From an uncultured delta proteobacterium (GTDB lineage Bacteria; Desulfobacterota; Syntrophorhabdia; Syntrophorhabdales; WCHB1-27), in NCBI GenBank assembly GCA_963810935.1, contig CAWEPK010000011.1:66429-130428 (forward strand): a stretch of 64,000 bases of DNA. Reading direction: 5' to 3'. A model generated the notes under the pieces. That model had not been told where the DNA came from. It worked only from the letters and a program-made list of their open reading frames with translations, and made no database searches. Made by a program: the position numbers and the translations under genes. Shown one piece after another: positions 2,398 through 26,193 of the stretch (the first letter of the stretch is position 1; every line of letters begins with the position of its first letter).

Positions 2398-2596
2398 CGG
2401 GGGCCGCATCAATCCCACCGTCGAGTGAAGGTAATTCATTTTGCTGCTTCCACTTATAGATAAACGCGCGACCTTGCTGAAGTGTATCGATTCTGTCATT
2501 GTTATTGCTTAATAATACTATTTTGTAGGAATCGCGGAAATTAGACCCTTACGGCCGCAAATATTCACTTGACATAACCCATCGTAAGGGAGTAAA

Positions 2597-2609
2597 TGAA
2601 TATAATTCA
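2597..2609. promoter_or_regulatory. Putative TetR operator TGAAT-N3-ATTCA upstream of the acyl-CoA ligase
   Basis: TGAATATAATTCA just downstream of a TTGACA (2569-2574) promoter; same palindrome at 13478-13490. Confidence 0.6.
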
Positions 2610-2746
2610 GGCAACAAGACCGGCACATGCCCGCCGGTTTTGTGGACTTAGCCGCAACTATACGGTCCTTTCCTGACGTGGGTCGTGCTGGGGGGCAACG
2701 ACCCGTTCTCAGTAACTAATCACGGGTGATACAAATAAGGGGAGGC

Positions 2747-4380
2747 ATGATGCGCAAGCTCGGCGCTATAACCACCTACAAAGACGTGGAGTCCCTGTCG
2801 ATCGGCCAGGCCCTGGAAAGGAGCCGGTACATTGCGCCGCGGAAGACGTGCGTCTTCTTCAAGGAAGAGGGGCTTACATATAAGCAACTGGACGATCAAT
2901 CGACCGCGCTGGCCGCCGGGCCTCCAGGAGATGGGCATAAAGAAAGGCGACCGGGTGGGCATATATATGTTCAACCGCCCGGAGCTGTACATAGCATTTT
3001 ACGCGCTTCAAAAGCTGGGGGCCGTTGTCGCATGGATAAACGCAGGTTACAGGTCCCATGAGGTGACGTTTATTCTCGAGAACTCTCAGGCCGTTGCCGT
3101 CCTTGCCGAGAAACGGGAAGAGGGCTTTGACAACCTGGACCTCGTCCGCGAGCTGCGTCATAACCTGCCCCGCCTCGCACACGTTGTCTCCGTAGGGGGT
3201 GGAGAGGGATATGACGTCGTCTCCTTCGAAGAGCTCATTGCCAGAGGGAAGAAAGGGAGATTCGTCAGGACCGCCATCAACGTGCGCCGCGACCTCTCCA
3301 TGCTGATCTATACATCGGGGACAACCGGGGTGCCGAAAGGCTCGATGATAACCCATTTCCAGGCCGTGCGGGGAGGATACTCTCACGTGCGCGGTATGGC
3401 CGCAACAGCCGACGACGTGTTTATGGGCATACTTCCCCTGGGCCACTCCTACGGGTGCGGGACGACCCTCATACAGCCGGTCCTCATCCAGGCCTCCGTC
3501 ATCCTCCTGGAGACGTTCAACGCGGATTTGGCGCTGAAGACCATCGACGCCCGGAAGCCTACGCTTCAGCACGGTTCTCCCTCTCACTACCTCATGGAGA
3601 TGAACCATCCGAGCGCGGACAGGTACGACCTTTCTTCCCTTCGGGCCGGCTACCTCGCGGGGCAGATATGCCCGGAAGAAATCATCCAATGGGGAGAAGA
3701 CAGGAATATATACCTCTCGTCTTCATGGGGGAATTCGGAGGTCGGCCCAGGGGCGGGGACGATCTGCCCCTTCGGCACGCCCCTCGCGATACGCAAAAAA
3801 AGCGTGGGCAGGCCTGTCCCCGGGATGCGGATAAAGGTGGTTGACCCGGCGACGGGCGGGCATCTCGATGCGGGCGGAATCGGCGAATTGATGGTGAAGG
3901 GACCGAACGTTTTGAAGGGCTACTGGCAAAATCCGCAGGAAACCGGCAAGCAATTGGAAAAAGACGGCTGGCTCCATACCGGGGACCTGGTGTCGGTCGA
4001 TAAGAAGGGTTTCGTCACGATTTACGGCAGGAGCAAGGATCTGATAAACAGGGGCGGGCTGAAGATCTACCCGTCCGAGGCTGGAGGCTTTGATCCTGCA
4101 GCACCCGGACGTTGCCCAGGCGTGTATCGTCGGCACGCCGAACCCGATCCTGGGTGAGAGCATCTGCGCGTGCGTAGTGCCGAAGGTCGATGCGGCCGTT
4201 TCCCTGAAGGGGATTCGTACGTTCCTTAAAGACAGGGTGGCGAACAACAAACTGCCGGATGAGCTTTGCGTGATGCCCGATTTTCCCAGGATGCCGGGCG
4301 GCGTGAAGGTAAAGAAATTCGGCTCAGGAGGAGTACAGGAGCAGGCGTTGAATGATGGAAACCGGGAAAAGATCAGATAG
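2747..4380 (+). CDS. Acyl/aryl-CoA synthetase (AMP-binding), split by frameshifts near 2918 and 4080
   Basis: YTSGTTGVPKG AMP motif, WGNSE, GELMVKGPNV, WLHTGD, GRSKDLINRGG and C-terminal HPDVAQACIVG...KLPD, spread over three frames; GGAGG RBS. Confidence 0.88.
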
Positions 4381-4451
4381 GCCTGGTTAAGAGTGGATTC
4401 GAGTCGTGCTTGACGCTTGGTGTGGTTCTATGACGCTAAAGGGGGGCAATT

Positions 4452-5516
4452 ATGGTACGAAAGGTAATGGTGTTTGTGTGTGCTGTTTTTCTAGTTGTCT
4501 CGGTCTGCTCCGTATGCGGCGCGGCAGAGACGATCAAGCTTAAGTTCGCGAACTATTTCCCGCCGGTCCACAAGAACTCGACCCTTTTTGCCGAGTTCTG
4601 CCAGGAGATAAACAAGAAATCCGGCGGCAAGGTCGAAATCTCCTATTATCCCGGAGGCACACTGCTGACCGCCCCGAAGATGGCGGCCGGTGTGCTCACG
4701 GGCATCGCAGACATCGGCCTGTCCCATTTCGCTTATACGAGGGGGCGCTTCCCCGTGATGGAAGCGATGGAGCTTCCGGTGGGGTTCCCCAGTGCATGGG
4801 TCGGAGCGGGGGTGGCAAACGACTTCTTCGACAAGTTCAAGCCGAAGGAGTGGGACCAGTTTCATCCTCTCGCTTTCTGCGCCTCGACGCCGGCCGTCTT
4901 CGGCACCATCTCCAAGCCCATCCGGAAGATCGAGGACCTGAAAGGGTTGAAGATCAGGGGGACCGGGCGGATCGGCGATGTTGTGAAGGCCCTCGGCGGG
5001 ACACCGATGCCTGTCGAGATCGTCGACACCTATGAGGCGCTCAGAAGAAACGTTGTTGACGGCAACCTGGGGTCGGCCGAGCAGCTCCAGGGCTTTAAGA
5101 TAGGCGAGATACTCAGGTACGTGACCGCGTCGTGGAAGGCCGGGGTCTGCTTCGGGTTCTACACGGCGATGAACAAGCGCAAATGGGACTCACTGCCTCC
5201 CGATATGCAGAAGCTCTTCACTGAGGTCGCGAATGAGTATAAGGACAAGTGGGGCATAGCCTTTAACAGCATCGATATCGGCGGAATAGATTTTCTGAAG
5301 AAGAACGGCGGGCAGGTCATTACACTTAGTGCTGCCGAGACGGAGAGGTGGGTAAAGGCAGTACAGCCGTTGATTGCGGAGTTCAAGAAGGAGATGGTGG
5401 CAAAGGGTCATAAGGAACAGGACGTGGATGCATGGTTCAGTTTCATCAGGGAGCGGACGGAGTACTGGAAGGCGCAGGAGAAGGCGAGGAAGATACCGAG
5501 CATCTACGAGTATTAG
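4452..5516 (+). CDS. dctP: TRAP transporter solute-binding protein (DctP family)
   Basis: Signal peptide, LKFANYFPP, YPGGTLL, DLKGLKIRG, YEALRRNVVDG. Confidence 0.9.
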   Translation: MVRKVMVFVCAVFLVVSVCSVCGAAETIKLKFANYFPPVHKNSTLFAEFCQEINKKSGGKVEISYYPGGTLLTAPKMAAGVLTGIADIGLSHFAYTRGRFPVMEAMELPVGFPSAWVGAGVANDFFDKFKPKEWDQFHPLAFCASTPAVFGTISKPIRKIEDLKGLKIRGTGRIGDVVKALGGTPMPVEIVDTYEALRRNVVDGNLGSAEQLQGFKIGEILRYVTASWKAGVCFGFYTAMNKRKWDSLPPDMQKLFTEVANEYKDKWGIAFNSIDIGGIDFLKKNGGQVITLSAAETERWVKAVQPLIAEFKKEMVAKGHKEQDVDAWFSFIRERTEYWKAQEKARKIPSIYEY

Positions 5517-5525
5517 AGAGTCAGT

Positions 5526-7919
5526 TTAAAGAAAGCAAAGGATATGTTCGCCCGAGCATATCCTTTGCTTGTAATCCTTTTTCCCTTCTTCCATCCGTTC
5601 GAGGGCGTCGAGTATCCTTTGCGGATAAAACGGCGTCCTGTCGAGGCGCACGCCGGTTGCATTGTAGAGAGCGTTTGCGACTGCGGCGACAGTACCCGCC
5701 ACGTAGCCTTCCCCCACTTCCTTCGTGTCGTAATGGCGGCCTTTCTTATACTCTTCCGTGATCACGTCAACGTAATCGGTCTTCACCATGTCGAGTGCGC
5801 ACGGGATCCTGTATTCCAGGAATGACGGGTTGATCACTGCGCCTTTGTCGGCGAGCACCTCCTCGTAAAGGGCGTGCCCCTGCGCCATGGAGACCTGGCC
5901 GTCGATCTGGCCTTCCACGAGCATTGGGTTGAACGGGAAGCCGCAGTCGTGGGCGGTCGTCACCTTTACAACCTTCATCATGCCCGTTTCCGTATCGACC
6001 TCGACTTCGGCCACCTGTGCATAAGAAGAGTAATTCTCGGTCCACCTGCCGCGCGTGGTCGCAAGGCTCGGGTGGGCAGGCTCGTCCTTCATCGTCCTGA
6101 AATGGCCTTCGCCTATGATGGTGTCTCCCTGGTTCCTGGTGATGCTTGCGCCGATCGCGTCCCTGTAAGAAAGTTTCCTCTCGGGCTGCCGCTTGACGTA
6201 GATCTCTTTATTTCTGGCCTCAAGCTCGCTCACGTCCGTATCGAGCTCCTCGGCCGCTGCCGCGAGGAGCTTCTTCATCGCGTTCTCGGCTGCCTGCTTC
6301 GCCGCGTTTCCGGTAACCCAGGTAAGCCCGCTGATCCAGGAGCCGATATCGACAGTCGTCGTCTCCGTGTCCGCAGCATATACCTGGATGTCCTCCATGG
6401 GGACGGACATCTCCTCGGCAACGATCTGGCTGAGCACCGTCTCCGCCCCCTGGCCCATATCGACTGCGCCGGTGATGAGTGAGACCCCGCCGTCGTCATT
6501 CAGCTTCACGATCACCGAAGAGCTGTTCGGGTAGATCAGGGAGCCGCCGAAATAGGCGCACGTCCCTATGCCCACCCCGCGTTTGATCTTCGAGCCGTCC
6601 TTCTGCGCCTTTTGTGCTTTCCTGTGCTTCTCGGAAAAGCCGCTGGACCTGGCTACCTCTTCGAGGCATTGGGCGAGCCCGAAGTTCTTAAGGGCATCGC
6701 CGTTCGGCAGCGTCTCGCCCGGCCGCCTGGCGTTCCGCAGACGCATCTCAAGTGGGTCTATGTGCAGGTCGTTTGCGATGGCGTCGAACTGCGATTCTAC
6801 TGCGAAGCGCATCGCCGGCGCGCCGTGGCCGCGCTGCGGGCAGCGGACCAGGTTGTTCGTATAGACGGAGTAGCCCTCGTATTCCAGGTTCGGTATCCTG
6901 TAAGGCGCCATGAGGAAGCCCCATGCGAGGAAGATGACTACTACACCGCTCCCCCGGTACGCCCCTGCGTCGTTTATCGTGCGCACCTTTTGCGCGAGGA
7001 TCGTCCCGTCGCGGTCAACGCCTGTCTTCAACTCCACGATGAGCGGCTGGCCGTGGCGCGCTCCCTTGAAGACCTCCTCCCGGCTGTAAACGATCCTGAC
7101 GGGCAGGCGGCATTTCATCGACAAGAGGGAGGCGATATACTCGTGGCCGAAGAGGTCTATCTTTCCGCCGAAGGCCCCGCCTACGTATGTCCTGTGGACC
7201 CGCACGCTCCCGTGGGAGAGGCCGAGGGTGTCCGCCAGCTTCGCGCGTTTCAGGAAAGTCCCCATGCTGGAGAGCCACACGTTGAGCTTACCGGAATGGT
7301 CGAAGGAAGCGACGATTGCCTGGGGTTCCATATATGCGTGCGTCCGCATGTGGGTGACGAACCGGTCTTCGCGTACCAGGTACGACTCCCTGAACGCCTT
7401 TTCCACGTCGCCCCACGACGTCTGGGTCTTCCCGCCGATGTTGCGATAAGGCTCCTTCACTTTTTCATGGGACGGGTGTATCTCCGGCGCGTCCGGCAGC
7501 ATCGCATCTTCCGGGTCGAATACCGCTGGCAGCAGCTCGTAATCGACTTTTATAAGCGAAAGGGCCTCTTCCGCAGTCGATTCGTCTATAGCCGCTACGC
7601 CGGCCACCTCCTCTCCCACGTGGCGCACCCTGTCGACTGCGATGGGGTACTGGTCCGCAGGGTATCGTCCCGTCTGAACGAAGCCGTGCTTGATCAAAAG
7701 GGAATCTTTCGCCGTGACGACCGCCTTCACGCCGGGGAGCCGCTCCGCCCTGCTCGTATCGATATATACTATGCGTGCGTGGGGAAAAGGGCTTCTCAGG
7801 ACCTTCCCGCAAAGCATGCCTGGAAGGGAGACGTCGACCGTATATTCGGCGCTTCCTGTGACCTTCGCGGCGCCGTCAATTCTCGGGACCGATTTCCCGA
7901 CGTAGAAGAGCCCGTCCAT
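5526..7919 (-). CDS. Xanthine dehydrogenase family Mo-binding subunit, 4-hydroxybenzoyl-CoA reductase alpha-like
   Basis: VGKSVPRIDG, GGAFGGK, QRGHG, DMGQG, VEGQIDG, KEVGEG; start overlaps the 2Fe-2S gene stop (TAATG). Confidence 0.88.
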   Translation of the reverse strand: MDGLFYVGKSVPRIDGAAKVTGSAEYTVDVSLPGMLCGKVLRSPFPHARIVYIDTSRAERLPGVKAVVTAKDSLLIKHGFVQTGRYPADQYPIAVDRVRHVGEEVAGVAAIDESTAEEALSLIKVDYELLPAVFDPEDAMLPDAPEIHPSHEKVKEPYRNIGGKTQTSWGDVEKAFRESYLVREDRFVTHMRTHAYMEPQAIVASFDHSGKLNVWLSSMGTFLKRAKLADTLGLSHGSVRVHRTYVGGAFGGKIDLFGHEYIASLLSMKCRLPVRIVYSREEVFKGARHGQPLIVELKTGVDRDGTILAQKVRTINDAGAYRGSGVVVIFLAWGFLMAPYRIPNLEYEGYSVYTNNLVRCPQRGHGAPAMRFAVESQFDAIANDLHIDPLEMRLRNARRPGETLPNGDALKNFGLAQCLEEVARSSGFSEKHRKAQKAQKDGSKIKRGVGIGTCAYFGGSLIYPNSSSVIVKLNDDGGVSLITGAVDMGQGAETVLSQIVAEEMSVPMEDIQVYAADTETTTVDIGSWISGLTWVTGNAAKQAAENAMKKLLAAAAEELDTDVSELEARNKEIYVKRQPERKLSYRDAIGASITRNQGDTIIGEGHFRTMKDEPAHPSLATTRGRWTENYSSYAQVAEVEVDTETGMMKVVKVTTAHDCGFPFNPMLVEGQIDGQVSMAQGHALYEEVLADKGAVINPSFLEYRIPCALDMVKTDYVDVITEEYKKGRHYDTKEVGEGYVAGTVAAVANALYNATGVRLDRTPFYPQRILDALERMEEGKKDYKQRICSGEHILCFL

Positions 7920-8406
7920 TAATGGCCTCCTTTCGCGCCGTATGCGGCGGAGGCTATCGCTTGCAGTATCTTGTTGTACCCGGTGCACCGGCAGAAGTTG
8001 CCGGAGATCGCGACGAGTATCTCCTCATCGGACGGCTTCGGGTTGGCGTCGAGGAGCGCCTTGGCAGTAAGCACCATGCCGGGCGTGCAATACCCGCACT
8101 GGACTGCCCCATGGTCGAGAAACGCCTGCTGGATGGGGTGCAGCCCTTCCCCTGAAGAAAGGCCCTCTATGGTCGTGATCTTCCTGCCCTGCGCCTCGAC
8201 TGCGAGGATAAGGCAGGAGCGGACGGGCAGACCGTCCATGAGGACCGTGCAGGCCCCGCATACTCCGTCGTCGCACGCCTGCCTGGCGCCTTTCATCGAC
8301 AGGTCCTCACGCAGCACTTCGAGGAGCGTCCGGTTGGGATGCGCGGCAATCTCGTAGTCCAGGCTGTTCACCGCGAGGGAGATGAGGCGCTTCGTTTTTT
8401 TTCCAT
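7919..8406 (-). CDS. [2Fe-2S]-binding subunit (HcrC/CoxS-like); 1-nt indel in the A8 run at 8395-8402
   Basis: CDDGVCGACT...C and QCGYC...NFCRCTGY motifs; ATG at 8406 with RBS restores the frame if one A is added. Confidence 0.9.
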
Positions 8407-8417
8407 TGCTCTCCTCT

Positions 8418-9395
8418 TTAGAGGCGCTCCAGCGCTGCTTTCATCGCCCTTACGGCGAAGACGGCCAGCATCTTACGCCTGTAAGACGCAGGCAGGACCT
8501 GGTTATCGACGAGGGGCAGGTTTTTGGGGATGGACCGGCCGATTGCATCCAGGTCGATGTCAGAAGGCGCCTTGCCTTCGACAAGCCCGTCGAGGGGGAC
8601 GACTACAGGGGCGGGACCGGCCGCTGTCAGAACGAGTCTGGCCGACTGTATCGTTTTCCCGGCTACTGTGACGAAGGCTGCCGCGCCCGCCATGGGGTAA
8701 TCTACTGCGGAGCGGAGGCGGAATTTTTCGTACGCTGCGCCCGCGTGACGGAAGAGAGGCACAACGACCTCCGTCGCAAGCTCGCCCGGCCTTAGTCGCA
8801 AAGGCGCAAGTCCCTGCCCGGTAAAAAGCTCCTCGACAGGGACTTCGCGGGGCTTCGCCCTTTTTCTCTCGATCCTGACGCTTACGCCCGATGCGATCAG
8901 CGCCGGGGCGATATCTCCCTGGTAGAGGCTGAAGCATTTCCTGCCGTTCGGCACTGCGAGGCAATGCCTGCCTCCAGCCTTGAGGCACGGCTCGCGCTCC
9001 ATCCTCCAGACTGCCGACTGGTTGTAGAAAAGGCAGCGGGACCCCTGGAACAGGTTTCCGCCTATCGTCGCCGTATTGCGTATCGGAGGGGCCGCGACTG
9101 AAAGTGCGGCGTGATAAAGCGCGGGCGCGTGCTTCATTACTTCCGGGGATGCCGCTATCTCGGAAAGGGTGGTCATTGCGCCGATCCGGAGCGCCTGCCT
9201 GCCCCGGACGATCCGGCTAAGCCCGGCCACGTCCTTGAGGCCGACTACCAGAGAGGGCCGCACCAGGCCGAGCCGTATCAACGGTATCAGGTCGGTCCCT
9301 CCCGCCTGGGGCCTTGCCTCTCCGTGGTGCTCCATGACCGCCAGGGCCTCTTTCACCGTCTCCGGTCCCAGGAAGTCAAAGTAAGGCAGTCGCAT
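8418..9395 (-). CDS. FAD-binding subunit with an extra [4Fe-4S] insert (HcrB-like)
   Basis: AGGTDL, RNTATIGGNL and C-x15-C-x7-C-x8-C insert (RCLFYNQSAVWRMEREPCLKAGGRHCLAVPNGRKCF). Confidence 0.88.
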   Translation of the reverse strand: MRLPYFDFLGPETVKEALAVMEHHGEARPQAGGTDLIPLIRLGLVRPSLVVGLKDVAGLSRIVRGRQALRIGAMTTLSEIAASPEVMKHAPALYHAALSVAAPPIRNTATIGGNLFQGSRCLFYNQSAVWRMEREPCLKAGGRHCLAVPNGRKCFSLYQGDIAPALIASGVSVRIERKRAKPREVPVEELFTGQGLAPLRLRPGELATEVVVPLFRHAGAAYEKFRLRSAVDYPMAGAAAFVTVAGKTIQSARLVLTAAGPAPVVVPLDGLVEGKAPSDIDLDAIGRSIPKNLPLVDNQVLPASYRRKMLAVFAVRAMKAALERL

Positions 9396-9430
9396 AGATG
9401 CGCCCCCTTGCGCTTGGTCGTGATAAGCTT

Positions 9431-10210
9431 TCAGGAAGCGGCTGCGAACAGGGCCGCACCGAGGGCCACGGTCATTGCCGGGTCCCATCCGGGTTTTTGC
9501 GGCAGGCCGCTCACCTGCAGGATGCCCTCGACCCGGCCTATCAACGCCGCGTTGTTTGCCAGCCCGCCTATAACCACGAAGTCTTTCTTCATGCCCGATC
9601 TGGCCACTAGCGTTGCGATCCTTTCCGCCATCGCCTGCATGTAGCCTGCGATGACATGTTCGGCAGGCACGTTGTGGCGGATGAGGTCGAGTGCCTCGGA
9701 CTGCGCGTATACTGCGCAGAAGTTGCCTATTTTCGCCGCTTTTTCCGACCGCGAGGCGGCATCGTTGATTCCGGCCGTATCCTCTCCCGCAAGCGCGGCA
9801 AAGGTCTCAAGGGAGCGGCCGATGCCTGACGCGCATTTGTCGTTCCATAGGAAATCTAGTGCCCTGCCCTTTTCAGTGCAATGGACTACCCGGCAGCTTA
9901 TGCCGCCTGCGTCGAGCACAGTGCGGACGGACGGCCCCCATGTGCGGACTGCGCCCGCAGCAGCGCATGCGACCTCGGTCACGCTCTTTTGGGCGAAGGC
10001 GACCTGCGCCCTGCCCCTGCCCGTCGCAACGATGCAGCCGACCTTGTCTATCTTCAAACCGGCCGCCGCCAGGGCCTCGTCGATCGCGGCTAAGGCCGAC
10101 TCGGCCGGCGTCCGGGTAGTGACGAGAGAACATCCGGCAAGCTCTCCGTCCACCAGTATCACGGCCTTCGAGGTTGAGGCGCCTATATCTATTCCCGCTG
10201 CTGTTTTCAT
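9431..10210 (-). CDS. ASKHA ATPase/activase subunit (BadF/BadG/BcrA/BcrD, BzdQ/P-like)
   Basis: GIDIGASTSK, ATGRGR, LDAGG, NDKCASG, CAVYAQSE, GGLANN; ATGA overlap with the upstream gene. Confidence 0.88.
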   Translation of the reverse strand: MKTAAGIDIGASTSKAVILVDGELAGCSLVTTRTPAESALAAIDEALAAAGLKIDKVGCIVATGRGRAQVAFAQKSVTEVACAAAGAVRTWGPSVRTVLDAGGISCRVVHCTEKGRALDFLWNDKCASGIGRSLETFAALAGEDTAGINDAASRSEKAAKIGNFCAVYAQSEALDLIRHNVPAEHVIAGYMQAMAERIATLVARSGMKKDFVVIGGLANNAALIGRVEGILQVSGLPQKPGWDPAMTVALGAALFAAAS

Positions 10211-10983
10211 CTTCCACCCTCGATTGCTGCGCCTATGGCGCACACGTATTCCGGCATCTCCGACAGGGATGCGTCCTGTCCTATGACGGCAGGCAGGCGC
10301 CCGGCGAGCGCTTTTGCCAGGCCGCCCGCGACGACGACCTCCCTGGTCAGCGTGATGCATGTGCTCATGGCGCCTACACGGTCGGCCATGAACTTCAGGA
10401 CTGCGTTCGCCGCGTCAGGGGTTTCCGTGCCCCTGCACATCAGGTCGATGACCTCAGACTCGGCACAGAGCGCGCACTGGACGGCGACTGAGGCGTCGAC
10501 CTTCGATTTCGCCGCGAGCGTGCACATCTCATCCTCGCTCAACCCCAGTGACCGCGCCATGGCTGTGTAGAAGATGCCGAGGCCGTCGGCGCACTTGTCG
10601 TTCTGGATGACGTCGATGACGTCGCCGCTTGCGTCGTACCGGACCGCCTGGTGTACGTTCCCGCCGATATCAATGACCGTCCTCGACGCCCTGTTGAGGA
10701 AGAAGGCGCCTCGTGCGGCTGCCACGTAGTCGGGGATGGCGCCCGAACCTTCCGCCGCCGCTCCCAACGCCCGCTCCCTGTATATGCCCGTAGTAACGAC
10801 AGCAGCAGGCGCGCCTGCGCCCGCGCTTTCCAGGCACCGGGCGAGGACCGCCCGGGCTGCGCCGGCCGGGTCGAACCCGGTCGGCACCGTGCAGGAGGCG
10901 AGGACCTCCCGGCCTCTCATTACTACCGCTTTCGTATTGACGTGGCCCGCATCAATTCCTGCCAGGATCTTTTCGTTATTCAT
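10207..10983 (-). CDS. ASKHA ATPase/activase subunit (BzdP/Q-like)
   Basis: GIDAGHVNTK, TTGIYR, IDIGG, NDKCADG, CALCAESE, GGLAK. Confidence 0.88.
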   Translation of the reverse strand: MNNEKILAGIDAGHVNTKAVVMRGREVLASCTVPTGFDPAGAARAVLARCLESAGAGAPAAVVTTGIYRERALGAAAEGSGAIPDYVAAARGAFFLNRASRTVIDIGGNVHQAVRYDASGDVIDVIQNDKCADGLGIFYTAMARSLGLSEDEMCTLAAKSKVDASVAVQCALCAESEVIDLMCRGTETPDAANAVLKFMADRVGAMSTCITLTREVVVAGGLAKALAGRLPAVIGQDASLSEMPEYVCAIGAAIEGGR

Positions 10984-12125
10984 GGCGCCACCCGCGTAAT
11001 CGTTTCTATGAGGGCCTCAAGCTGAGTCCCGAACTGGTTCATCGGCACGGTCGTATCGAGCTCCAGCTCAACCGAAGGGATGCCGAGCTGCTCCAAAATG
11101 GGCTTCAATGCAACGATGTCGTTAGGCTGGGGGCTGCAAAACCGCTGATATAAAAATATCACGCCGTCCGGCCTGTAGTCCTCTATGAACTGCCTGACGA
11201 ACCTGAACCTTTTCCGCTCGCCCGTGCCCGGCACGTTGTCTTTTGCGGGGCAGGGGAGCCTGCCCGTGTAGCCTTCCGCAAGCGCAGCGAGCTTATCGGC
11301 CCTGCCTTCCGGCACCTCGAACCAGAAGTACCTGGCCGCAGTGCAGGAATCGGCGAACACAAGGCTCGCCTTGTAACCCAGGTGCTCGATCAGGTCGAAG
11401 ACCGCGAGGTCGTCGCACGCGCCTCCCGTCACCATGAGCCTTACTCCCGGCGGCTTGCCCGCATCGCCGTCAAGGCTGCCGATCAATTCTTCGAGCATCT
11501 CATTGCACTCCTGCTTATCCATGACCTGGGCGGCAAGCGTCACCGCCGCAGCTTCCGGCCCGGTTACGGGCGGCCTGTCGCTCCTCAGGAACTCCCACAG
11601 CCGTTTGAGCAGTCTTCTGTTGCGGTTGTAAACCTTGATTGCCTCTTCCAGTTTTGCGTCCGTTATGCTCTTTGTCGAGAATTTCTCTACGAACTGCCTG
11701 AATTGTCCGAAGGACTCGGCGACAAAGGCCGGGGCGGGTTTGGTTTCCATGATGTGTGGGAATGGTATGAGGTAGCTTTTCTCCCCGAACCCGGCGAACC
11801 GGACCCAGACATTGAACGCCTCGGACATATGGATGCAACTGCTGCTCGTGACGAGCAGGTCGAGGTAGTCGTAATTGTGCTGCAAGCCTTGATAGGCGCA
11901 GTCGTGCGAGAAGGAGCAGTACGTCTCATGGATGTAGCTCCTCGTCATCGCTTGCGACACGTGGTTGGTTAGGACCCTGACCGGGACGATGCCGGCCGCA
12001 TAAAGGATCTCCTCGGGGACGTGGGTGCACATGTACCCCGCAATCGGGCGGCCCAGTGCCTTTGCATATGCGTGCGGCTCCTCGCTTATCCGGCGGAAGC
12101 GTTCGACGATCGCGGCTTTTTCCAT
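10980..12125 (-). CDS. 2-hydroxyacyl-CoA dehydratase/benzoyl-CoA reductase subunit (BzdN/BcrC-like)
   Basis: GYMCTHVPEEILYAAG, YCSF, SSCIH, CTAARYF, RFCSP; HGD-D family pattern. Confidence 0.85.
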   Translation of the reverse strand: MEKAAIVERFRRISEEPHAYAKALGRPIAGYMCTHVPEEILYAAGIVPVRVLTNHVSQAMTRSYIHETYCSFSHDCAYQGLQHNYDYLDLLVTSSSCIHMSEAFNVWVRFAGFGEKSYLIPFPHIMETKPAPAFVAESFGQFRQFVEKFSTKSITDAKLEEAIKVYNRNRRLLKRLWEFLRSDRPPVTGPEAAAVTLAAQVMDKQECNEMLEELIGSLDGDAGKPPGVRLMVTGGACDDLAVFDLIEHLGYKASLVFADSCTAARYFWFEVPEGRADKLAALAEGYTGRLPCPAKDNVPGTGERKRFRFVRQFIEDYRPDGVIFLYQRFCSPQPNDIVALKPILEQLGIPSVELELDTTVPMNQFGTQLEALIETITRVAP

Positions 12126-13441
12126 TATCGCACCCCTTTCCTGCGGGCTTCCATCAGGTGGACTAACAACTCCGTTTTCCGCTGGGCGCCCGGCAGGTCC
12201 ATCTTACGGACGTCAACCTGGTCGGTGTCGTATTCCACGGTGGGAATCTCGCCCTTGAAAATGCGCTGCATGCCGATGTAGCCGTTCCTGAAGTCCGTCT
12301 CGCAGCTACGGGAAGGTGCGAGCAGGAGTCCGTCCGCCTTATATTCATCCACCATCGCCCTTGCCATCTTTTCCAGGGCCCAGTAGGAGCGCACACCCTG
12401 CCAGGTGGGCCAGCCGAGGACTATCTTGGCAAGCTCGGTGATCGCCTTTCTTCTCGTTGACACGTCGAGCTCGTCCACCCATTGAGGGTCTATAGGCTCC
12501 CAGGTCCACTTGCCGTCCACCAGCCCCTTGAAGTTGCCGCAGGTGCCGAAAGTGTAGACCGAGGCAACGATCTCGGCCCCGACGTCCCGGAGGATGCGCG
12601 CCATTTCCGGGTGGCCGTAAGTGTGGGCGATTCCGAAGTAGACTATCCTGTAGCGCTGGTCGGGGGCGACGCTCTCGCCGTTTGCGACCATGCTCTTCAC
12701 TTCCTCGAGCAGCGTCTCATACAGCCTGACGCTTTCATCGGTCGTCCTGTCAACGATCGCAGGGGGGAAAAGGGCAATGAGACGCCGCTCGTCGAGGGGC
12801 GCGGGCGAGCGCATGTTGAGGGCGCAGATATTGCCCCACAGGACGAGTACCTTGATCTCGTTCCTGGCGGCCTTGATGAACAGCTCGTCCGAGTACCCCC
12901 TGCCGGTCACCCTTTCGAGCCAGTTTATTCCGCCTTCTATCTGGTCGGAGACGTACTTTACGATCTTGGGGTCTTTCTCGGCGTTGCCGCCACCGATCAT
13001 ATCTATCGCGTACATGGGGATGCCGCCGAGGCGCCTTGAGACCTCCTGATACCATTTGGAGTGCTGGCTGCACAGGTGCGTTGTCCAGATCACGTCCGGC
13101 TTGGGATACCCGTCCCTGATCGTACCGTCGGTAATGGCGATCTTGTCCCGGACGACCTCTCCTACAAAGAGCTTCAGGTAGCTGCAAGCGTGGAAGCCCA
13201 GACCTGCGGCCTCTGCCGCCGCAATGTCCAAACGGCTTTCCTCCGGGAAGGTGCCTGCCGTCGAAGCGGCATGCGGCTCGCCGCCTATCAGGTGCACGTC
13301 CTCCCCCAGCCCCTTCAGCGGGGCCAGCACGCTCCATGTGGAGCCCATGCAGCGCAAACCGCCGGAAGCCTCCACGTAGTCCTTGTAACATCCGCTCTGG
13401 TAGCTCTTGATCTCGGGCCAGGTCTTCAGGTTATACGGCAC
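12125..13441 (-). CDS. 2-hydroxyacyl-CoA dehydratase/benzoyl-CoA reductase subunit (BzdO/BcrB-like)
   Basis: GEPHAAS, ACSYLK, PKPD...HLCSQHSKWYQ, LERVTGR, RSCE; three Fe-S cysteines. Confidence 0.82.
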   Translation of the reverse strand: MPYNLKTWPEIKSYQSGCYKDYVEASGGLRCMGSTWSVLAPLKGLGEDVHLIGGEPHAASTAGTFPEESRLDIAAAEAAGLGFHACSYLKLFVGEVVRDKIAITDGTIRDGYPKPDVIWTTHLCSQHSKWYQEVSRRLGGIPMYAIDMIGGGNAEKDPKIVKYVSDQIEGGINWLERVTGRGYSDELFIKAARNEIKVLVLWGNICALNMRSPAPLDERRLIALFPPAIVDRTTDESVRLYETLLEEVKSMVANGESVAPDQRYRIVYFGIAHTYGHPEMARILRDVGAEIVASVYTFGTCGNFKGLVDGKWTWEPIDPQWVDELDVSTRRKAITELAKIVLGWPTWQGVRSYWALEKMARAMVDEYKADGLLLAPSRSCETDFRNGYIGMQRIFKGEIPTVEYDTDQVDVRKMDLPGAQRKTELLVHLMEARRKGVR

Positions 13442-13477
13442 TTCAGCCTCCTATCTCATGCCTGCCGGCTCTATTAT

Positions 13478-13568
13478 TGAATACGATTCATTATTATCCA
13501 TCCGTCACTGCTTGTCAAGTAATTTTAATCCTGTAAAATCACATAACTAATGATATTAATGATATTCA
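13478..13568. promoter_or_regulatory. Divergent promoter region with TetR-type operators
   Basis: TGAATACGATTCA (13478-13490) and near-match TTAATGATATTCA (13556-13568) between the reductase operon and tetR. Confidence 0.6.
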
Positions 13569-13666
13569 ATATTTAAGTCACGGCTGGCCGTGTTTCCGTC
13601 CGGCAGGGGCAATCGCCTTCTTGACAAAAACAGCGGGCAATAGTAAAACCAAAGGAACGAGGCACT

Positions 13667-14356
13667 ATGAAAGGCAAAGACGAGACGCTGAAAAAAAGTT
13701 TCAAGAGAAAGGCGATCATACAGGCGGCCATCGAAGTCTTCGGCAAGAAGGACTTCCAGAGCGCGGCCATATCGGAGATAGCCCAGAGCGCGGGCGTCGC
13801 CGACGGCACCATTTACCAGTATTTCAAGAACAAGGAAGACCTCTTCTTTTCGATCCCCGTCGAGAAGACGAAAGAATTCCGCGACGAGCTTAACCTCCAC
13901 CTCCAGGGCATCCACGGCGCACTGAATAAGATTCGGAAATTCGTCTGGTACTTCCTTTATTTCTTCAAGACGAACCCCGAGTACGGAAGGATACTGATGC
14001 TCGAGATGCGGGTGAGCAGGAGTTTCGTCGCAACGGCGACGTACGATTTCCTGAAGAAATCGGTCAGCCAGGTGATGGAGATCATCGCCGAAGGGCAGAA
14101 AGAAAGGGTTATCAGGGCCGACATCGACCCATACGTCATGCGCCACCTTATCCTCGGCGTCTTAGAGCACATGGCGACGCGCTGGCTGCTCAAAGGCGCG
14201 AAATACGACCTGCTCGCGCATCATGAGGAAGTCAGCCGGCTGTTGATCGACGCGTTGAGCAGCGAGTCCGCCCGCATGGGAAAACCCACCGATAAACGCA
14301 GCGCAAGGAAGGCGCAGCCGGGGACGCCGCCCGCCAAACGCAAACCGACTCAATAA
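13667..14356 (+). CDS. TetR/AcrR family regulator (FadR/YsiA-like C-terminus)
   Basis: HTH ISEIAQSAGVADGTIYQYFKNKEDL; divergent from the reductase operon. Confidence 0.92.
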   Translation: MKGKDETLKKSFKRKAIIQAAIEVFGKKDFQSAAISEIAQSAGVADGTIYQYFKNKEDLFFSIPVEKTKEFRDELNLHLQGIHGALNKIRKFVWYFLYFFKTNPEYGRILMLEMRVSRSFVATATYDFLKKSVSQVMEIIAEGQKERVIRADIDPYVMRHLILGVLEHMATRWLLKGAKYDLLAHHEEVSRLLIDALSSESARMGKPTDKRSARKAQPGTPPAKRKPTQ

Positions 14357-19285: not shown

Positions 19286-20851
19286 TTAGAACGTCCTGTT
19301 CTTATCTTCGGCGATCCATTCAGGGAACCAATGGTAGTATTCCGTCGGGTGGGCATGATCCAACCCGTCGTAAGTGGCCTTCGCCAACTCGATACCTTTC
19401 TTTGTCCTGACAAGCTTGATGAATCCCTTCTTTTCGAGCTCTACAAGCAGCGCGTCCAGCCTGTCCTCGCCGACATCCAGGGCCTCCGTTATATCACTGC
19501 GGGTCATATAGAGGCCCGGGTTTACCCGGTAGTCCTCTGCAAGAAGGTTCAGAAGTTTGTCCCCATCCACATCCTTCTCTTTGTCCGGAGGTGCAGAAAT
19601 GGGCACGGGGATACCGAGGACCGGATCGATCGTACGCCGCCGCATTTTAAGCTCATCGGCCATAGACCGAAGGGCAGCCCTGAATACGACCAACCGGCAT
19701 GCTTCCATAGTCCCGCCGGCGATATTTTCAACTTTGGCCTGGTCCATAATCTCCTCAAGAGGATAGAACGGGGTGACGCCGTCGCCGCCCATCACCTGGA
19801 TGGCGTCCAGGCTGCCCTGTAGGGCCGATTCGCAGTTATAGATCTTCGCGAGGTTCGACTCTATAGTAATATCCTTTCCGAGGTCCCAAAGGTAGGCGTC
19901 GTAATAGGTAAGGAGTCTCGCGGTTTTTGCCTTCATCACAAGGTCCGCGATCCTGAACTGGTTGACGGGGATGTCGATGGTCGGCTTACCGAACTGCACT
20001 CTCCGCTGCGCATATGGAACGACATTACGAAGAAGCTCCCGGAGCCACCCGGTCGCCGTGGCCGATATCAGGGTCCTCTCGAAATTAAGGCCGGCCGTCA
20101 TTACGCGCCAGCCGTCACCCTCATTTCCGATGCGATTGGCTGCCGGGACACGGACATTGTTGAAGTCGAGCACCCCGTTTTGGATATTGCGGAACCCCAT
20201 AATCTCGTTGACCTTCTCGACGGTAAATCCGGGTGTCCCCTTTTCGACGATAAAAGCGGTCAGGTGACGATAACTGCGTATCGCTTCCGGGTCGTTGCTC
20301 GTTCGGGCATAGACCATATGGCGCGTGGCAACGCCGGCCGACACTATGAACCGCTTCTTCCCCCGAATTACATAAACGTCGTCTTCCGGCCTTGCGGTCG
20401 TCTCTATGGCCGCAGCGTCGGTCCCGGCAAAGGACTCGGTAATAACAATCGCCCCGATCTCTCCCCCCGCAATCCGCGGTAGTATCTCTCTCTTCTGCTG
20501 TTCCGTTCCGAACTCCATGACCTGCCGTAGGCCGCCCAACATATTTCCGACGAAGGCACGCCCCGGTCCGGGCATGCAACCCATCGCTTCAGCAGCAATA
20601 CAGGCGCCTGTCGCGCCGAGACCAAGACCCCCGTATTGCTTAGGGATGGCCGCACCTGAGTAACCCTTCTCTCCTATTTTTTGAAAAATGTCCCACGGGA
20701 ATTCGCGGGTCCATCGCGTCTGTGCGTCCCTGGGCAGTATCTCTTTTACAAAGGCGGCCATGTCCGCCGAAAATCTTATCTGTTCTTCAGTCCACCACGG
20801 ATAACTTTCCACAATCCCCCCCCTTGCAGTCTCGTTGCTTATAGCCGCCAC
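19286..20851 (-). CDS. Acyl-CoA dehydrogenase with a ~125 aa C-terminal extension
   Basis: ITESFAGTD, GKKRFI, LNFER, RVQFGKP, IQVMGGDG, IAGGT. Confidence 0.9.
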   Translation of the reverse strand: MAAISNETARGGIVESYPWWTEEQIRFSADMAAFVKEILPRDAQTRWTREFPWDIFQKIGEKGYSGAAIPKQYGGLGLGATGACIAAEAMGCMPGPGRAFVGNMLGGLRQVMEFGTEQQKREILPRIAGGEIGAIVITESFAGTDAAAIETTARPEDDVYVIRGKKRFIVSAGVATRHMVYARTSNDPEAIRSYRHLTAFIVEKGTPGFTVEKVNEIMGFRNIQNGVLDFNNVRVPAANRIGNEGDGWRVMTAGLNFERTLISATATGWLRELLRNVVPYAQRRVQFGKPTIDIPVNQFRIADLVMKAKTARLLTYYDAYLWDLGKDITIESNLAKIYNCESALQGSLDAIQVMGGDGVTPFYPLEEIMDQAKVENIAGGTMEACRLVVFRAALRSMADELKMRRRTIDPVLGIPVPISAPPDKEKDVDGDKLLNLLAEDYRVNPGLYMTRSDITEALDVGEDRLDALLVELEKKGFIKLVRTKKGIELAKATYDGLDHAHPTEYYHWFPEWIAEDKNRTF

Positions 20852-20894
20852 ACACCGGCGTTCTAAAAGTCGTTAACGTCCTGTGGCTTATTGC

Positions 20895-23213: not shown

Positions 23214-23218
23214 GGCGC

Positions 23219-23686
23219 CTACTCCTTCATCATTTGTGCGGCGGCTCTTACCGATGCAAAAATCTTCGTATATCCCGTGCACCGGCAGAAGTTCCCGGAC
23301 AGTCCCTGGCGTATCTCCTCATCACTGGGGTCCTTGTTCTTATCAAGGAGGACTTTCGTAGAGAGGATCATCCCCGGCGTACAAAACCCGCATTGCAGCC
23401 CTCCGACGTCTACGAAAGCCTGTTGAATCGGGTGGAGCTTCTCGCCATCCGCCAGCCCTTCGATAGTCGTGATCTCCTTTCCGTCGGCTTCCATCGCAAG
23501 CATTATGCAGGCATTGACCGCCTGGTTATCCATGATCACGGTGCAAGCCCCGCATTCACCGAGACCGCACCCCTCTTTTGTTCCCGTCAGCCCCAGGTCT
23601 TCCCGGAGGACGTCGAGCAGCATGGCTGACGGCTTCACCTTTACCGTATATGGTTTGTTGTTGACCTTCAGTTTTAAGGTTTTCAC
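23219..23686 (-). CDS. [2Fe-2S]-binding subunit
   Basis: GCGLGECGACT, QCGFC, NFCRCTGY; GTG start overlaps the FAD subunit stop. Confidence 0.92.
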   Translation of the reverse strand: MKTLKLKVNNKPYTVKVKPSAMLLDVLREDLGLTGTKEGCGLGECGACTVIMDNQAVNACIMLAMEADGKEITTIEGLADGEKLHPIQQAFVDVGGLQCGFCTPGMILSTKVLLDKNKDPSDEEIRQGLSGNFCRCTGYTKIFASVRAAAQMMKE

Positions 23687-24573
23687 AATTGATCTCCCTC
23701 CAGGAGGACCTGCCGGAGCGCTCTTCTCGTCATCACGTAGACCATGTCGCAGCGGTATTCCCTTGACGCCCTGTGATCGTCGATGGGGCTGCATTGCGTT
23801 ATGGCGTTGTTTGCAGCCTCGTCGATAAGACCGGACGTGATTTTTTGACCGCGGAGGATCGATTCCGCCATCGGCGCACGGACAGGCGTCGGCGCCACCG
23901 CTCCGAGGGCGATCCTGATCTCTTTACAGACGCCTTTATCGCAGGCCGCCACCACCGAGACCCCCACAACGGCAAGGTCCATGGAATGGCGGGGTGAGAG
24001 CTTGAAGTAGACGCCTTTGCTTCCGGACGGCGTATTCGGCACCTTGATGGCTGTTACAATCTCTTCCCTGCCTACGACCGTTTGCCTGGGACCGGTAAAG
24101 AACTTGTCAAGCGGAACCAGGCGTTCGCCTCCGGGGCCCCTCAAACGAACCGTGGCGTCGAGGGCCAGCAGAGCGGGAGCACTGTCGGCCGACGGAACGG
24201 CAGAACAGATATTGCCGACAAAGGTCGCGCGGTTGCGGACCTGGGGCGATGCCATACTTGCCGCTGCCTGGGCGAGGACCGGGAAAAGTGCTCGTACCTG
24301 CCCGGAGCCTTCGATTGCCGCAGCCGTCGTCAGCGCACCTATGGTCAGGCCTCCGGCCTCGCTGCACGCGAAACGCTCCAGCTCCCGCAATCCCTTGAGA
24401 TCGATTACGCAGCTCACTGCCGTTTTTTCACGCTTCTTCAGCCAGGGAATCAGGTCGGTTCCGCCTGCCATGACCTGTGCCTTCTCTCCACGCTTTACGA
24501 GAAGCGCGATTGTCTCTTCGATAGTCTTGGGTTTTAAGTAGTCAAATTGCGGTAGTCTTCGGTAAAAGGTCAT
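23683..24573 (-). CDS. FAD-binding subunit (CoxM-like, no 4Fe-4S insert)
   Basis: AGGTDL, RNRATFVGNI, ALGAVAPTP. Confidence 0.92.
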   Translation of the reverse strand: MTFYRRLPQFDYLKPKTIEETIALLVKRGEKAQVMAGGTDLIPWLKKREKTAVSCVIDLKGLRELERFACSEAGGLTIGALTTAAAIEGSGQVRALFPVLAQAAASMASPQVRNRATFVGNICSAVPSADSAPALLALDATVRLRGPGGERLVPLDKFFTGPRQTVVGREEIVTAIKVPNTPSGSKGVYFKLSPRHSMDLAVVGVSVVAACDKGVCKEIRIALGAVAPTPVRAPMAESILRGQKITSGLIDEAANNAITQCSPIDDHRASREYRCDMVYVMTRRALRQVLLEGDQL

Positions 24574-24621
24574 GGTGCCCCTCCTTATGCCACTCTCGAT
24601 GACCGGCCTGTCATCTTAAAC

Positions 24622-26128: not shown

Positions 26129-26193
26129 CGGCGAGGCCGATAAGATTGTAAGGTTGTATGAAATGTTCACAGGAAAATTATTAGACACGTTGG

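Follow-up and report, generated by a model that had tools for sequence, protein, structure and literature searches.

The O-N-P-Q proteins encoded in the window (the whole 64,000-nucleotide stretch analysed) are, by alignment, tree position and fold, a long-branch offshoot of BZD-type class I benzoyl-CoA reductases (BCRs). Judged across loci, the conserved unit is O-N-P-Q plus a TetR gene and a palindrome 22-23 bp behind a -35 box. The ring pocket is rebuilt with invariant polar residues, which suggests that a polar-substituted substrate, likely an amino- or hydroxy-substituted benzoate, is attacked rather than benzoate itself. Our preferred reading, to which we give roughly one chance in three, is a TetR-controlled funnel: DctP and the ligase would bring an ortho-amino or ortho-hydroxy benzoyl-CoA (likely from anthranilate or salicylate) to O-N-P-Q. 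The locus is laid out as follows.

2569-2609, plus strand: ligase-dctP operon promoter with TTGACA (2569); the palindrome TGAATATAATTCA (2597-2609) follows after 22 nt
2747-4380, plus strand: ligase, an AMP-forming acid-CoA ligase of the FadD/aryl-adenylate type
4452-5516, plus strand: dctP, a solo TRAP solute-binding protein (DctP)
5526-7922, minus strand: hcrA-like, molybdopterin subunit of the xanthine oxidase family, with a 15-codon read-through tail
5533-5570, no strand: 14-bp perfect inverted repeat, likely a terminator shared by the convergent operons
7919-8406, minus strand: hcrC-like, 2x[2Fe-2S] subunit
8418-9395, minus strand: hcrB-like, FAD subunit with an extra four-Cys [4Fe-4S] loop
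9431-10210, minus strand: Q, BzdQ-like ASKHA activator subunit
10207-10983, minus strand: P, BzdP-like ASKHA activator subunit
10980-12125, minus strand: N, BzdN-like subunit with the six Cys of an [8Fe-9S] double cubane
12125-13441, minus strand: O, BzdO-like catalytic subunit
13478-13518, minus strand: reductase operon promoter with TTGACA (13518-13513) and AATAAT; the palindrome (13478-13490) covers the predicted start site
13667-14356, plus strand: TetR of the YsiA/FadR type, divergent from the reductase operon

An earlier sequence-only reading had described this locus, and its observations held in part. Gene content and orientation of both operons were as listed, and the lack of a ferredoxin gene holds for window positions 1-25000. 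Overlapping starts and stops exist at O/N and C/A (TAATG) and at N/P and P/Q (ATGA), but Q/B and B/C are separated by gaps of 35 and 11 nt. The 9-bp gap between the convergent operons is present but derived, because the hcrA stop codon has been lost: sequence comparison finds TAC at the former stop in the window, backed by two public DNA runs, and TAA in the sister species (locus L021). The tail extends 15 codons past the former stop and across the hairpin at 5533-5570, and the hcrA-like protein has 797 amino acids versus 780-783 in close homologues. In the assembly, the ligase is frameshifted by +1 twice, near 2916 and near 4079, and a run of eight A residues (8395-8402) throws the hcrC ATG out of frame. 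Contigs of four public DNA runs from one study are one base shorter at 2916/2921 in all four runs, one base shorter at 4079 in two of three runs with coverage, and five bases shorter at 8395 in all three runs with coverage. These lesions are most likely assembly errors, not broken genes.

All four reductase subunits, two catalytic proteins of the HGD-D family and two ASKHA activators, occur in 29 of 31 related loci, and the other two loci stop at a contig end. The subunits had been called divergent, and they indeed miss the equivalog cut-offs of NCBIfam TIGR03190/03191/03192 (240/453.8, 211/448.6 and 189/380.2 bits), while alignments, tree and fold identify a BZD-derived class I enzyme, not a dehydratase. 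A quick IQ-TREE search places the O clade, on a long stem (1.27), as sister to protein P0121 (support 97), in a group with three over-cut-off BzdO representatives (90); the clade nests in the BZD radiation, away from the HadB-like proteins. The structure nearest to O is BzdO (TM 0.92, rmsd 2.2 A). The O protein of the window keeps Cys86, Cys124, Cys380, Glu55, His127, Trp36, Tyr88 and Tyr296, and the catalytic [4Fe-4S]-OH2 site is present with its three Cys, Glu65 and His131 (the last two in reference numbering); 119-120 of the 120 clade O proteins conserve the residues that PMC11971306 names as catalytic or cluster-binding. All 28 of 28 loci conserve the six double-cubane cysteines of N (33, 70, 97, 261, 292 and 330 in the window), and His330 is replaced. 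That a strict anaerobe has a class I enzyme is less surprising than had been supposed, given precedents in THN-CoA reductase, Desulfotomaculum gibsoniae and Ferroglobus (PMC12016498, PMC4148979 and PMC5736913).

The pocket of O underlies the predicted substrate class, and favours the earlier suggestion of a hydroxylated or substituted substrate as likely. Every one of the 120 clade O proteins has His57, Ala272, His273, Thr300, Thr382 and Asp383, whereas Thr300, His273 and Asp383 occur in none of 49 non-clade controls, which have Leu at position 383 in 40 cases and at 300 in 44. Where a hydrophobic benzoyl pocket has Leu302, Leu383 and, at the thioester oxygen, Gln274, the clade has Thr, Asp and Ala in all 120 proteins, versus mostly Leu/Leu/Gln in controls. 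The O-N gene order, also singled out earlier, is a mark of the clade: it is found in every clade locus showing both genes, and N-O in all controls holding both. The BZD hallmark of an N-O-P-Q order with dch, had and oah nearby is absent from the clade. That O-N-P-Q is a plain second, generic benzoyl-CoA reductase is highly improbable. In its favour, no catalytic residue is lost, Dch, Had and Oah are encoded in the host, and a search of the class at E<=1e-65 turned up no canonical BzdO, although this search was weak and gave no match anywhere; but the pocket departs at positions nearly invariant in controls, all subunits score far under the NCBIfam cut-offs, the ligase is not a benzoate-CoA ligase, BamB is already present in the hosts, and the cassette comes with a repressor of its own. 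Databases label clade proteins "benzoyl-CoA reductase subunit B", which probably misstates what the host organisms eat.

The activator subunits are altered at their phosphate sites. Q keeps cluster residues Cys126 and Cys165 and the base Glu79, with the phosphate-site Ser, Asp and Thr replaced (Ala11, Ser105 and Ile), and P keeps Cys131 and Cys170, with motifs GxDxGH, DxGGN(V/I) and NDKCADG. The canonical Q motifs (GxDxGS, GGQD, CAAGTG) are all present in 35 of 35 control BzdQ, picked by NDKCAAGxGRG; clade Q proteins have the Ser in 1 of 23, the Asp and Thr in 0 of 23, and the Glu69 equivalent in 23 of 23. ATP-driven reduction by O-N-P-Q is uncertain because P and Q both lack the phosphate-site Asp (D94-equivalent of DCCP-R) that is invariant in BzdQ. 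These replacements would suit a non-aromatic radical enzyme, such as a dehydratase of the 2-hydroxyacyl-CoA type or some other one-electron catalyst that relies on catalytic activation alone and tolerates weak ATPase sites, and this reading also draws on a loop, RIVYFGIAH, that aligns nearer HadB than BzdO, and on PaaK-like and long-chain-type ligases among the neighbours. We consider it very unlikely: the double-cubane cysteines that are lost in such dehydratases (PMC11971306) are kept, His127 stands where HadB has Ala, the activator is heterodimeric, and tree and fold side with BzdO. On the double cubane, the His131 position and the activator, a HadBC/HgdAB assignment was rejected.

The palindrome, TGAAT-N3-ATTCA, is found at 2597 and 13478 as first noticed, both times 22 nt behind a TTGACA box. 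These are the only exact copies in the 4.06-Mb genome, where about 0.8 would be expected anywhere. Across clade loci the spacer to TTGACA is 22-23 nt in 19 of 19 pairs found, and 18 of 27 loci carry a palindrome in the 300 nt upstream of O, versus 9 of 1487 background windows. A TetR orthologue is present in 16 of 31 related loci; the protein in the window scores 139 bits versus the cut-off of 200 for NF053878. The shared operator proposed earlier is thus borne out as a conserved operator-like site at a fixed promoter position, kept with TetR across genomes, and we predict that TetR binds it.

The ligase was rightly judged not to be a canonical benzoate-CoA ligase: TIGR02262 is not among its best 25 families, and its pocket reads HSYGCGTT, where benzoate-CoA ligases have KLFFAYGLGN. 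An intact orthologue (L040) has 542 amino acids and is about 80% identical. The structures closest to the window-type ligase are salicylate- and 2,3-dihydroxybenzoate-AMP ligases, though these matches are distant (E 5e-63), and an unrelated ligase beside the Dethiobacter cassette (L035) is nearest to the anthranilate-CoA ligase 4WV3. Both have Ser at the position of BadA Ala227, which is Thr in the anthranilate ligase and Asn in the salicylate ligase. PMC10803450 links this position to ortho substituents. The two neighbour ligases may therefore point to ortho-polar acids, one Ser being weak evidence. Weighing against the ortho-substituted funnel, the ligases that adjoin the cassette across loci are of at least four non-orthologous types, PaaK-like included, and one genus has six genomes where the window-type ligase stands apart from O-N-P-Q and the 12-20 kb read contain no operator. 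No dctQ or dctM accompanies dctP inside the module.

Of 96 genomes in the class, 20 carry the conserved unit, which also occurs in other phyla; the reductase is 77-87% identical across phyla, and carriers nearly always also encode a tungsten class II BCR (BamB in 19 of 20). None of the 31 clade loci has a dch-had-oah set and three have a single beta-oxidation-type gene, whereas dch, had or oah matches adjoin the cassette in 18 of 38 control metagenome BZD loci; this absence is weakened because many clade loci stop at contig ends. The host genome encodes Oah above its cut-off, as well as Had, Dch and BamB, and ferredoxins are encoded elsewhere in it. In 7 of 31 loci, amidohydrolases adjoin the cassette; they could release an ortho-polar acid from an amide. 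Molybdoenzymes of the xanthine-oxidase and DMSO-reductase families are likewise frequent neighbours. Such neighbours and the polar O pocket would also fit an N-heteroaromatic CoA ester (pyridine- or pyrrole-carboxyl-CoA), with the new His and Asp binding the ring nitrogen. This is decidedly unlikely, since no downstream enzyme is conserved and a reduced heterocycle would need dedicated hydrolases, while two neighbour amidohydrolase types have no close homologue (E<1e-20) in the host genome.

In the ortho-substituted funnel that we prefer, an aroyl-CoA would free TetR from both palindromes. Electrons would pass from a ferredoxin encoded elsewhere through the P-Q [4Fe-4S] cluster and the N double cubane to the O [4Fe-4S]-OH2 site, which would add hydrogen to C4 and C3, as in BzdNO. 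The resulting 2-amino or 2-hydroxy dienoyl-CoA would tautomerise or hydrolyse, with loss of NH3, to 6-oxocyclohex-1-ene-1-carbonyl-CoA, the substrate of host Oah, and therefore no dedicated ring-opening genes would be needed. As a parallel, PMC5742626 describes 2-fluorobenzoyl-CoA, also ortho-substituted, as ring-reduced and reaching Oah-level intermediates without new enzymes. A bolder version is a long shot: O-N-P-Q might be a new Birch-type subclass for energy-starved anaerobes, the long-missing anaerobic 2-aminobenzoyl-CoA (or salicylyl-CoA) reductase, whose two rewired ATPase sites would bring its ATP demand below that of class I BCRs, or even to zero, since its ortho-substituted product would collapse to a stable enone that goes straight to Oah.

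The Hcr-like trimer has the three-subunit xanthine-oxidase-family plan and the extra [4Fe-4S] loop in the FAD subunit that is described in PMC11760930. Its subunits are below the NCBIfam cut-offs (639/994.55, 251/404.55 and 160/257.8 bits), and the A subunit is 38-41% identical to over-cut-off HcrA and belongs to a separate paralog clade of 23 members (FastTree support 100). These scores and the separate clade set the trimer apart from HcrABC. The trimer had been read as an integral step, but no close hcrB or hcrA lies within 10 kb in 31 of 31 related loci, and the genes are deleted in the sister species. In relatives a PaaK-like ligase and TRAP genes accompany them in a separate sensor/sigma-54 module. 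The trimer is probably a lineage-specific graft from a neighbouring sigma-54 module, not required by the reductase; in the operon it appears to be a recent, dispensable addition, likely co-transcribed with the reductase in the window. A member of the Hcr-like clade is found anywhere in the genome in 14 of 20 reductase carriers versus 11 of 76 non-carriers, figures that come from few genera whose members, as kin, are not independent. This co-occurrence was counted in favour of the sequence-only reading.

An alternative that is possible, if somewhat unlikely, has a meta or para hydroxyl or amino group removed reductively, yielding benzoyl-CoA for the host class II BCR, while the Hcr-like enzyme would strip a second, para, substituent, for instance of a 3,4-disubstituted benzoate. 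It is the closest to the earlier view. Phenylphosphate-synthase-like routes normally lead to para-substituted acids (phenol and aniline routes), and gene pairs of this type adjoin the cassette in three loci (L030, L038/L118 and L041), which also counts against the ortho-substituted funnel. In 4 of 31 loci bamBCD is found immediately downstream of the cassette, and the high frequency of BamB and of the Hcr-like clade among carriers fits as well. In the literature, class I BCRs turn 3-chloro- and 4-fluorobenzoyl-CoA into benzoyl-CoA (PMC5742626), and Hcr-like proteins are proposed as the 4-aminobenzoyl-CoA reductase of D. anilini (PMC7500099). However, the bamB linkage comes from one genus, the Hcr-like genes show the absences noted above and in relatives have their own ligase and regulator, and ATP spent merely to regenerate benzoyl-CoA would be costly for an energy-limited host. 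The earlier idea of a self-contained pathway is supported only in part, because the trimer is a separate clade whose usual place is a sigma-54 module and which the sister species has deleted; moreover, the locus has no ring-opening genes or dctQM, and BamB, Dch, Had, Oah and ferredoxins come from elsewhere in the host.

According to PMC8388817, genes for anaerobic 2-aminobenzoate degradation are barely known, and PMC7500099 assigns the deaminating step for aminobenzoyl-CoAs by annotation only. The O-N-P-Q clade is a specific candidate that can be cloned, and because a ligase, a binding protein and a repressor come with it, its ligand can be sought in three independent ways. It also raises the energetic question of why syntroph-type bacteria with an ATP-free tungsten reductase retain an ATP-type one, and whether the altered ATPase sites of P and Q cut the ATP cost.

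Among known systems, the BZD enzyme of strain CIB (PDB 8S02/8S1T/8S2R; PMC11971306), whose radiation includes the clade, shares the four-subunit plan, the fold (TM 0.92), the [8Fe-9S] ligands in N, the [4Fe-4S]-OH2 ligands in O, and Ser44, Trp46, Glu65, Tyr97, His131, Tyr298 and Glu381 in O. It differs in sequence (about 30-33% identity) and in Gln274, Leu302, Gly382, Leu383, Tyr67 and Pro275, all replaced in the clade, which also has altered Q phosphate motifs, the order O-N-P-Q, no adjoining dch/had/oah or ferredoxin gene, TetR control, and hosts with a class II BCR. The 3-methylbenzoyl-CoA reductase MbdONPQ of Thauera chlorobenzoica (PDB 9G87/9GAI) is likewise a class I variant for a substituted benzoyl-CoA, with subunits given as ONPQ in the PDB title, but it is more distant (18-19% identity, TM about 0.82), MbdQ keeps GxDxGS and GGQD, and the substituent of its substrate is non-polar. 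The known special-substrate class I aryl-CoA reductase of strict anaerobes, compared by description, is alike in class and host lifestyle, whereas its 22-gene operon includes ferredoxin and beta-oxidation genes. The 2-hydroxyisocaproyl-CoA dehydratase HadBC/HadI (PDB 3O3M, 4EHT) shares the protein family, an O-N-like subunit order and an ASKHA activator, but lacks the double cubane, has a homodimeric activator and lies on a separate branch (TM 0.79, versus 0.92 for BzdO). HcrABC of Thauera aromatica (PDB 1RM6) differs from the Hcr-like trimer, whose clade has Gln-to-Met and GAY(S/A)SRQT-to-GSWISGLT changes and in four genomes is found alongside an over-cut-off HcrA; the two share the three-subunit plan, the extra [4Fe-4S] loop, the catalytic Glu and the RGHG motif, and 1RM6 is the best PDB match for both Hcr-like subunits tested.

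The BzdO-like catalytic subunit O, whose partner N is BzdN-like, defines a tight clade akin to BZD-type benzoyl-CoA reductases (BCRs). Among the 120 homologues listed, O proteins of the clade share 78 to 99% identity, and the next full-length cluster lies at 35%. A quick IQ-TREE phylogeny nests the clade within the BZD radiation on a stem of 1.27; the 106 O-like proteins in it comprise the window protein, 8 clade members and 97 full-length representatives drawn from the 150 listed, fragments being left out. The predicted model of O (pLDDT 91.5) most resembles BzdO in structure (TM 0.92), followed by MbdO (0.81 to 0.83) and HadB (0.79). Cys95/128/380, Glu65, His131, Ser44, Trp46, Tyr97, Tyr298 and Glu381, residues named in PMC11971306, are kept in 119 to 120 of 120 clade O proteins, and N retains its six double-cubane cysteines at 28 of 28 loci. 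The cluster ligands, tree and fold argue against a dehydratase, and O-N-P-Q is predicted to act like a class I BCR.

All reductase subunits score at about half the NCBIfam cut-offs, and the reductase falls outside the BZD equivalog. The TIGR03191 profile, run across the class at 1e-65, has no match anywhere, which by itself is uninformative. Several exchanges in the O pocket are each present in 120 of 120 clade proteins: Tyr67 to His57, Gln274/Pro275 to Ala272/His273, Leu302 to Thr300, and Gly382/Leu383 to Thr382/Asp383. His273, Thr300 and Asp383 occur in none of 49 non-clade control O proteins.

The clade is present in 20 of the 96 genomes of the class (carriers), two more having weak matches only, and also appears under the record titles Dehalococcoidales, Dethiobacter and Desulfobacteraceae. 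At 31 compared loci, the O-N-P-Q cassette is complete in 29; TetR is present at 16, and a window-type ligase and a close DctP at 5 each; because kin are not independent, our locus and genome tallies are descriptive only. Of the 12 genomes with a window-type ligase, 11 are carriers (a frameshifted copy in genome G086 was missed by the search); in one genus this ligase lies apart from the cassette and has no operator. Ligase partners at other loci are long-chain-type, PaaK-like or benzoate-family. A 686-aa molybdoenzyme of the DMSO-reductase family adjoins the cassette at L029, L031, L039, L045 and L051 (also L028 and L037), and at some loci further neighbours are a PaaK-like ligase, a creatininase-family hydrolase, an MmgE/PrpD protein and a flavoprotein resembling fumarate reductase; two paralogs of the molybdoenzyme, 58% identical, are encoded in the window's genome (contigs C7 and C10). 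One cassette lies on a 3.9-kb contig (L034) in a record titled Bacteroidetes. BamB and Oah were not found in that genome, and the contig is possibly misbinned.

Genes, strands, overlaps and both palindromes of the module are located where the sequence-only reading had placed them. Features of the promoter and uptake parts are:

2426-2438: one-mismatch copy of the palindrome
2597: palindrome TGAAT-N3-ATTCA
2747-4380 (+): ligase
4452-5516 (+): DctP
13478: palindrome TGAAT-N3-ATTCA
13556-13568: one-mismatch copy of the palindrome
13667-14356: divergent TetR

In the assembly, the ligase contains two +1 frameshifts and the hcrC start codon is out of frame. The sister-species ligase is frameshifted at other places, and the extra bases are absent from DNA-run contigs (2916/2921 in 4 of 4 runs, 4079 in 2 of 3 covering, 8395 in 3 of 3 covering), so these breaks are likely assembly errors. 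The contigs come from four DNA runs of one study, possibly of the source population, and hence are not independent of the assembly. A pseudogene reading is rejected for both, as short-read contigs restore the frames. The 9-bp gap reported between the convergent operons is real but derived, as it results from read-through of hcrA, whose stop position is TAC in the window and TAA in the sister species. The frame then crosses a 14-bp hairpin, and the hcrA-like product is 797 aa long versus 780 to 783 in close homologues. Two runs match the window exactly at this point, ruling out sequencing error. No dctQ or dctM accompanies dctP inside the module. The nearest structures to DctP are 4N6D, 4PGN/4PGP and 4NAP; ligands of the latter two sets are presumably indole acids and D-tryptophan, to which we give no weight as evidence.

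The 4.06 Mb contain two exact palindromes, both at the module's promoters. Across loci, the spacer between TTGACA and the palindrome is 22 to 23 nt in 19 of 19 pairs, and at 18 of 27 loci a relaxed motif is found no more than 300 nt 5' of O, versus 9 of 1487 background windows. Relaxed TGAAY-N3-RTTCA shows no genome-wide enrichment (4 found versus ~6 expected) and is informative through its position only. TetR, a YsiA/FadR-type regulator, is predicted to bind the palindromes. No wider regulon was found in the window genome. In genome G087 and at locus L049, the motif also lies 5' of a different transporter-ligase operon, suggesting a regulon of uptake, ligase and reductase. A promoter scan called the reductase promoter alone (5 sites versus 4.0 in shuffles) and showed no convincing excess of terminators. 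The one-mismatch copies, one 5' of each main site, may act as auxiliary operators or serve TetR autoregulation; in several relatives the palindrome is present two or three times.

Hcr-like genes lie directly behind Q in the window, and had been taken as part of the module. Several observations argue against a conserved role there: close hcrA or hcrB genes lie within 10 kb of the cassette at none of the 31 loci; the sister species (94 to 95% DNA identity) has a deletion joining the first hcrB codons to hcrA-end remnants; and in G087 the Hcr-like module sits ~10 kb behind Q, where it has a sensor and a sigma-54 regulator of its own. In relatives G078, G087, G017 and G031 the trimer is 3' of a PAS sensor and sigma-54 regulator, and in relatives a PaaK-like ligase is downstream, often with TRAP genes. 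The Hcr-like clade occurs without O-N-P-Q in seven genera. Its presence in 14 of 20 carriers versus 11 of 76 non-carriers counts against this reading, and may reflect a shared diet.

The Hcr-like FAD subunit carries the HcrB-type [4Fe-4S] loop. In a FastTree phylogeny, the Mo subunits form their own clade, with 38 to 41% identity to over-cut-off HcrA and distinct Mo-site motifs, the residues being compared from alignments only. Sub-cut-off scores and the separate clade rule out canonical HcrA, and both types occur together in G088, G089, G090 and G093. In this Mo subunit clade (57 to 91% identity, 25 of 96 genomes), Met replaces the usual Gln and GSWISGLT replaces GAYSSRQT. The B-C-A trimer recurs at L075 (in G087) and L076-L080, followed by a PaaK-like ligase, TRAP Q-M-P or both; in 4 of these 6 it is preceded by a PAS sensor and a sigma-54 regulator. 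This recurring module could encode a reductive molybdoenzyme of a new kind, perhaps akin to the hcr-like proteins that aniline induces in D. anilini.

The window genome's BamB shares 87% identity with the protein at L023, whose match to the class II BCR structure 4Z3W scores 1134 bits. BamC/D, Oah above cut-off, Had, a candidate Dch and, from a motif search, 11 small ferredoxin-like ORFs are also encoded, so the module supplements a benzoyl-CoA pathway of the kind normal for strict anaerobes. BamB is present in 19 of 20 carriers and 3 of 5 distant hosts. At L023, L025, L027 and L044, all of one genus, O-N-P-Q-TetR-SDR lies immediately 5' of bamB-bamC-bamD. Elsewhere in the window's genome are two further HGD-D-family pairs (C8:820652-824784 and C10:18399-20941), one of which is accompanied by a ligase and by TRAP and beta-oxidation genes; an activator pair lies apart from them (C18:30099-31740). 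Other features of the window, including two more xanthine-oxidase-family Mo trimers within 19286-32427, are:

19286-20851: acyl-CoA dehydrogenase with a C-terminal extension
20895-24573 (-): Mo trimer; its Mo subunit (20895-23282) scores 685 bits on the HcrA model, above 639 for the module's own hcrA-like
27560-29236: another aryl-type ligase
29270-32427 (+) onward: Mo trimer
33411-34478: another solo DctP, with clear sequence similarity to that at 4452-5516
36797-45371: very large glycosyl hydrolase/cyclic glucan synthase-like gene (by eye), split into two frames that overlap near 41330-41635, probably through a further assembly frameshift
55001-60000: low-GC island (42-47% versus ~58%), two hypothetical proteins on the minus strand

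A dch-had-oah set is absent from all 31 clade loci, so the product must join the general pathway. A single crotonase, hydroxyacyl-CoA dehydrogenase or thiolase match is found at 3 of the 31, versus 18 of 38 metagenome BZD controls with such genes within 6 kb. THN-CoA reductase is located in a beta-oxidation operon (PMC12016498). Reduction of an ortho-hydroxy or ortho-amino benzoyl-CoA would give a dienol or dienamine, which on chemical grounds would collapse to 6-oxocyclohex-1-ene-1-carbonyl-CoA, the Oah substrate. We tentatively favour this ortho route, at a probability of roughly 0.35, on weak hints: two neighbouring ligases, unrelated to each other, come closest to enzymes that activate salicylate and anthranilate, and both ligases have Ser at the BadA Ala227 position, which PMC10803450 links to ortho substituents; O has lost the Gln that binds the thioester oxygen; and amidohydrolases are recurrent cassette neighbours. 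A somewhat less probable alternative is reductive elimination of a meta or para group to give benzoyl-CoA, which has precedents for 3-Cl and 4-F (PMC5742626) and over which these hints favour the ortho route; phenylphosphate-synthase-like neighbours point away from the ortho route. Such a pair, comprising a 615-aa PRK08296-family protein and a 375- to 398-aa PEP-synthase-like protein, lies between the ligase and TetR or the O gene in three genomes (L041:17308-20415, L118:2225-5286, L119:10547-13606), with no carboxylase seen beside it at these loci.

The activator subunit Q differs from the controls. In DCCP-R, phosphates are held by S9-N11 and the Q93/D94 stretch, with D94 or E69 as the base (PMC9351452). 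HadI, HgdC, MbdQ and DCCP-R all have GxDxGS, GGQD and CAAGTG, as do 35 of 35 control BzdQ proteins, unlike clade Q, which has the Ser in 1 of 23, the Asp in 0 of 23 and the Thr in 0 of 23. At the corresponding places, the residues of clade P are His and NV/NI. In the BZD type a degenerate P is usual and a degenerate Q unusual, whereas in the clade both are degenerate. The clade keeps the four cluster cysteines, the E69 equivalent and, apart from single exceptions, the leading Asp of the phosphate motifs, so we read the ATPase as altered but not necessarily dead. This alteration is the basis for the speculative idea of an ATP-sparing Birch-type reductase.

Class I enzymes are already described for strict anaerobes in PMC12016498, PMC4148979 and PMC5736913, so the occurrence of one in such a host is not in itself new. 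The literature searched, which covered few subscription journals, contained no description of the clade, and a mention inside a phylogeny is possible; we also drew on PMC7500099, PMC4539516, PMC11760930, PMC8388817 and PMC7317905. The present analysis adds the operator geometry, tested against controls, and corrections for assembly errors and read-through; it also adds a history of graft and loss for the Hcr-like genes, the finding that Q is rewired, and a specific model with an ortho-substituted substrate.
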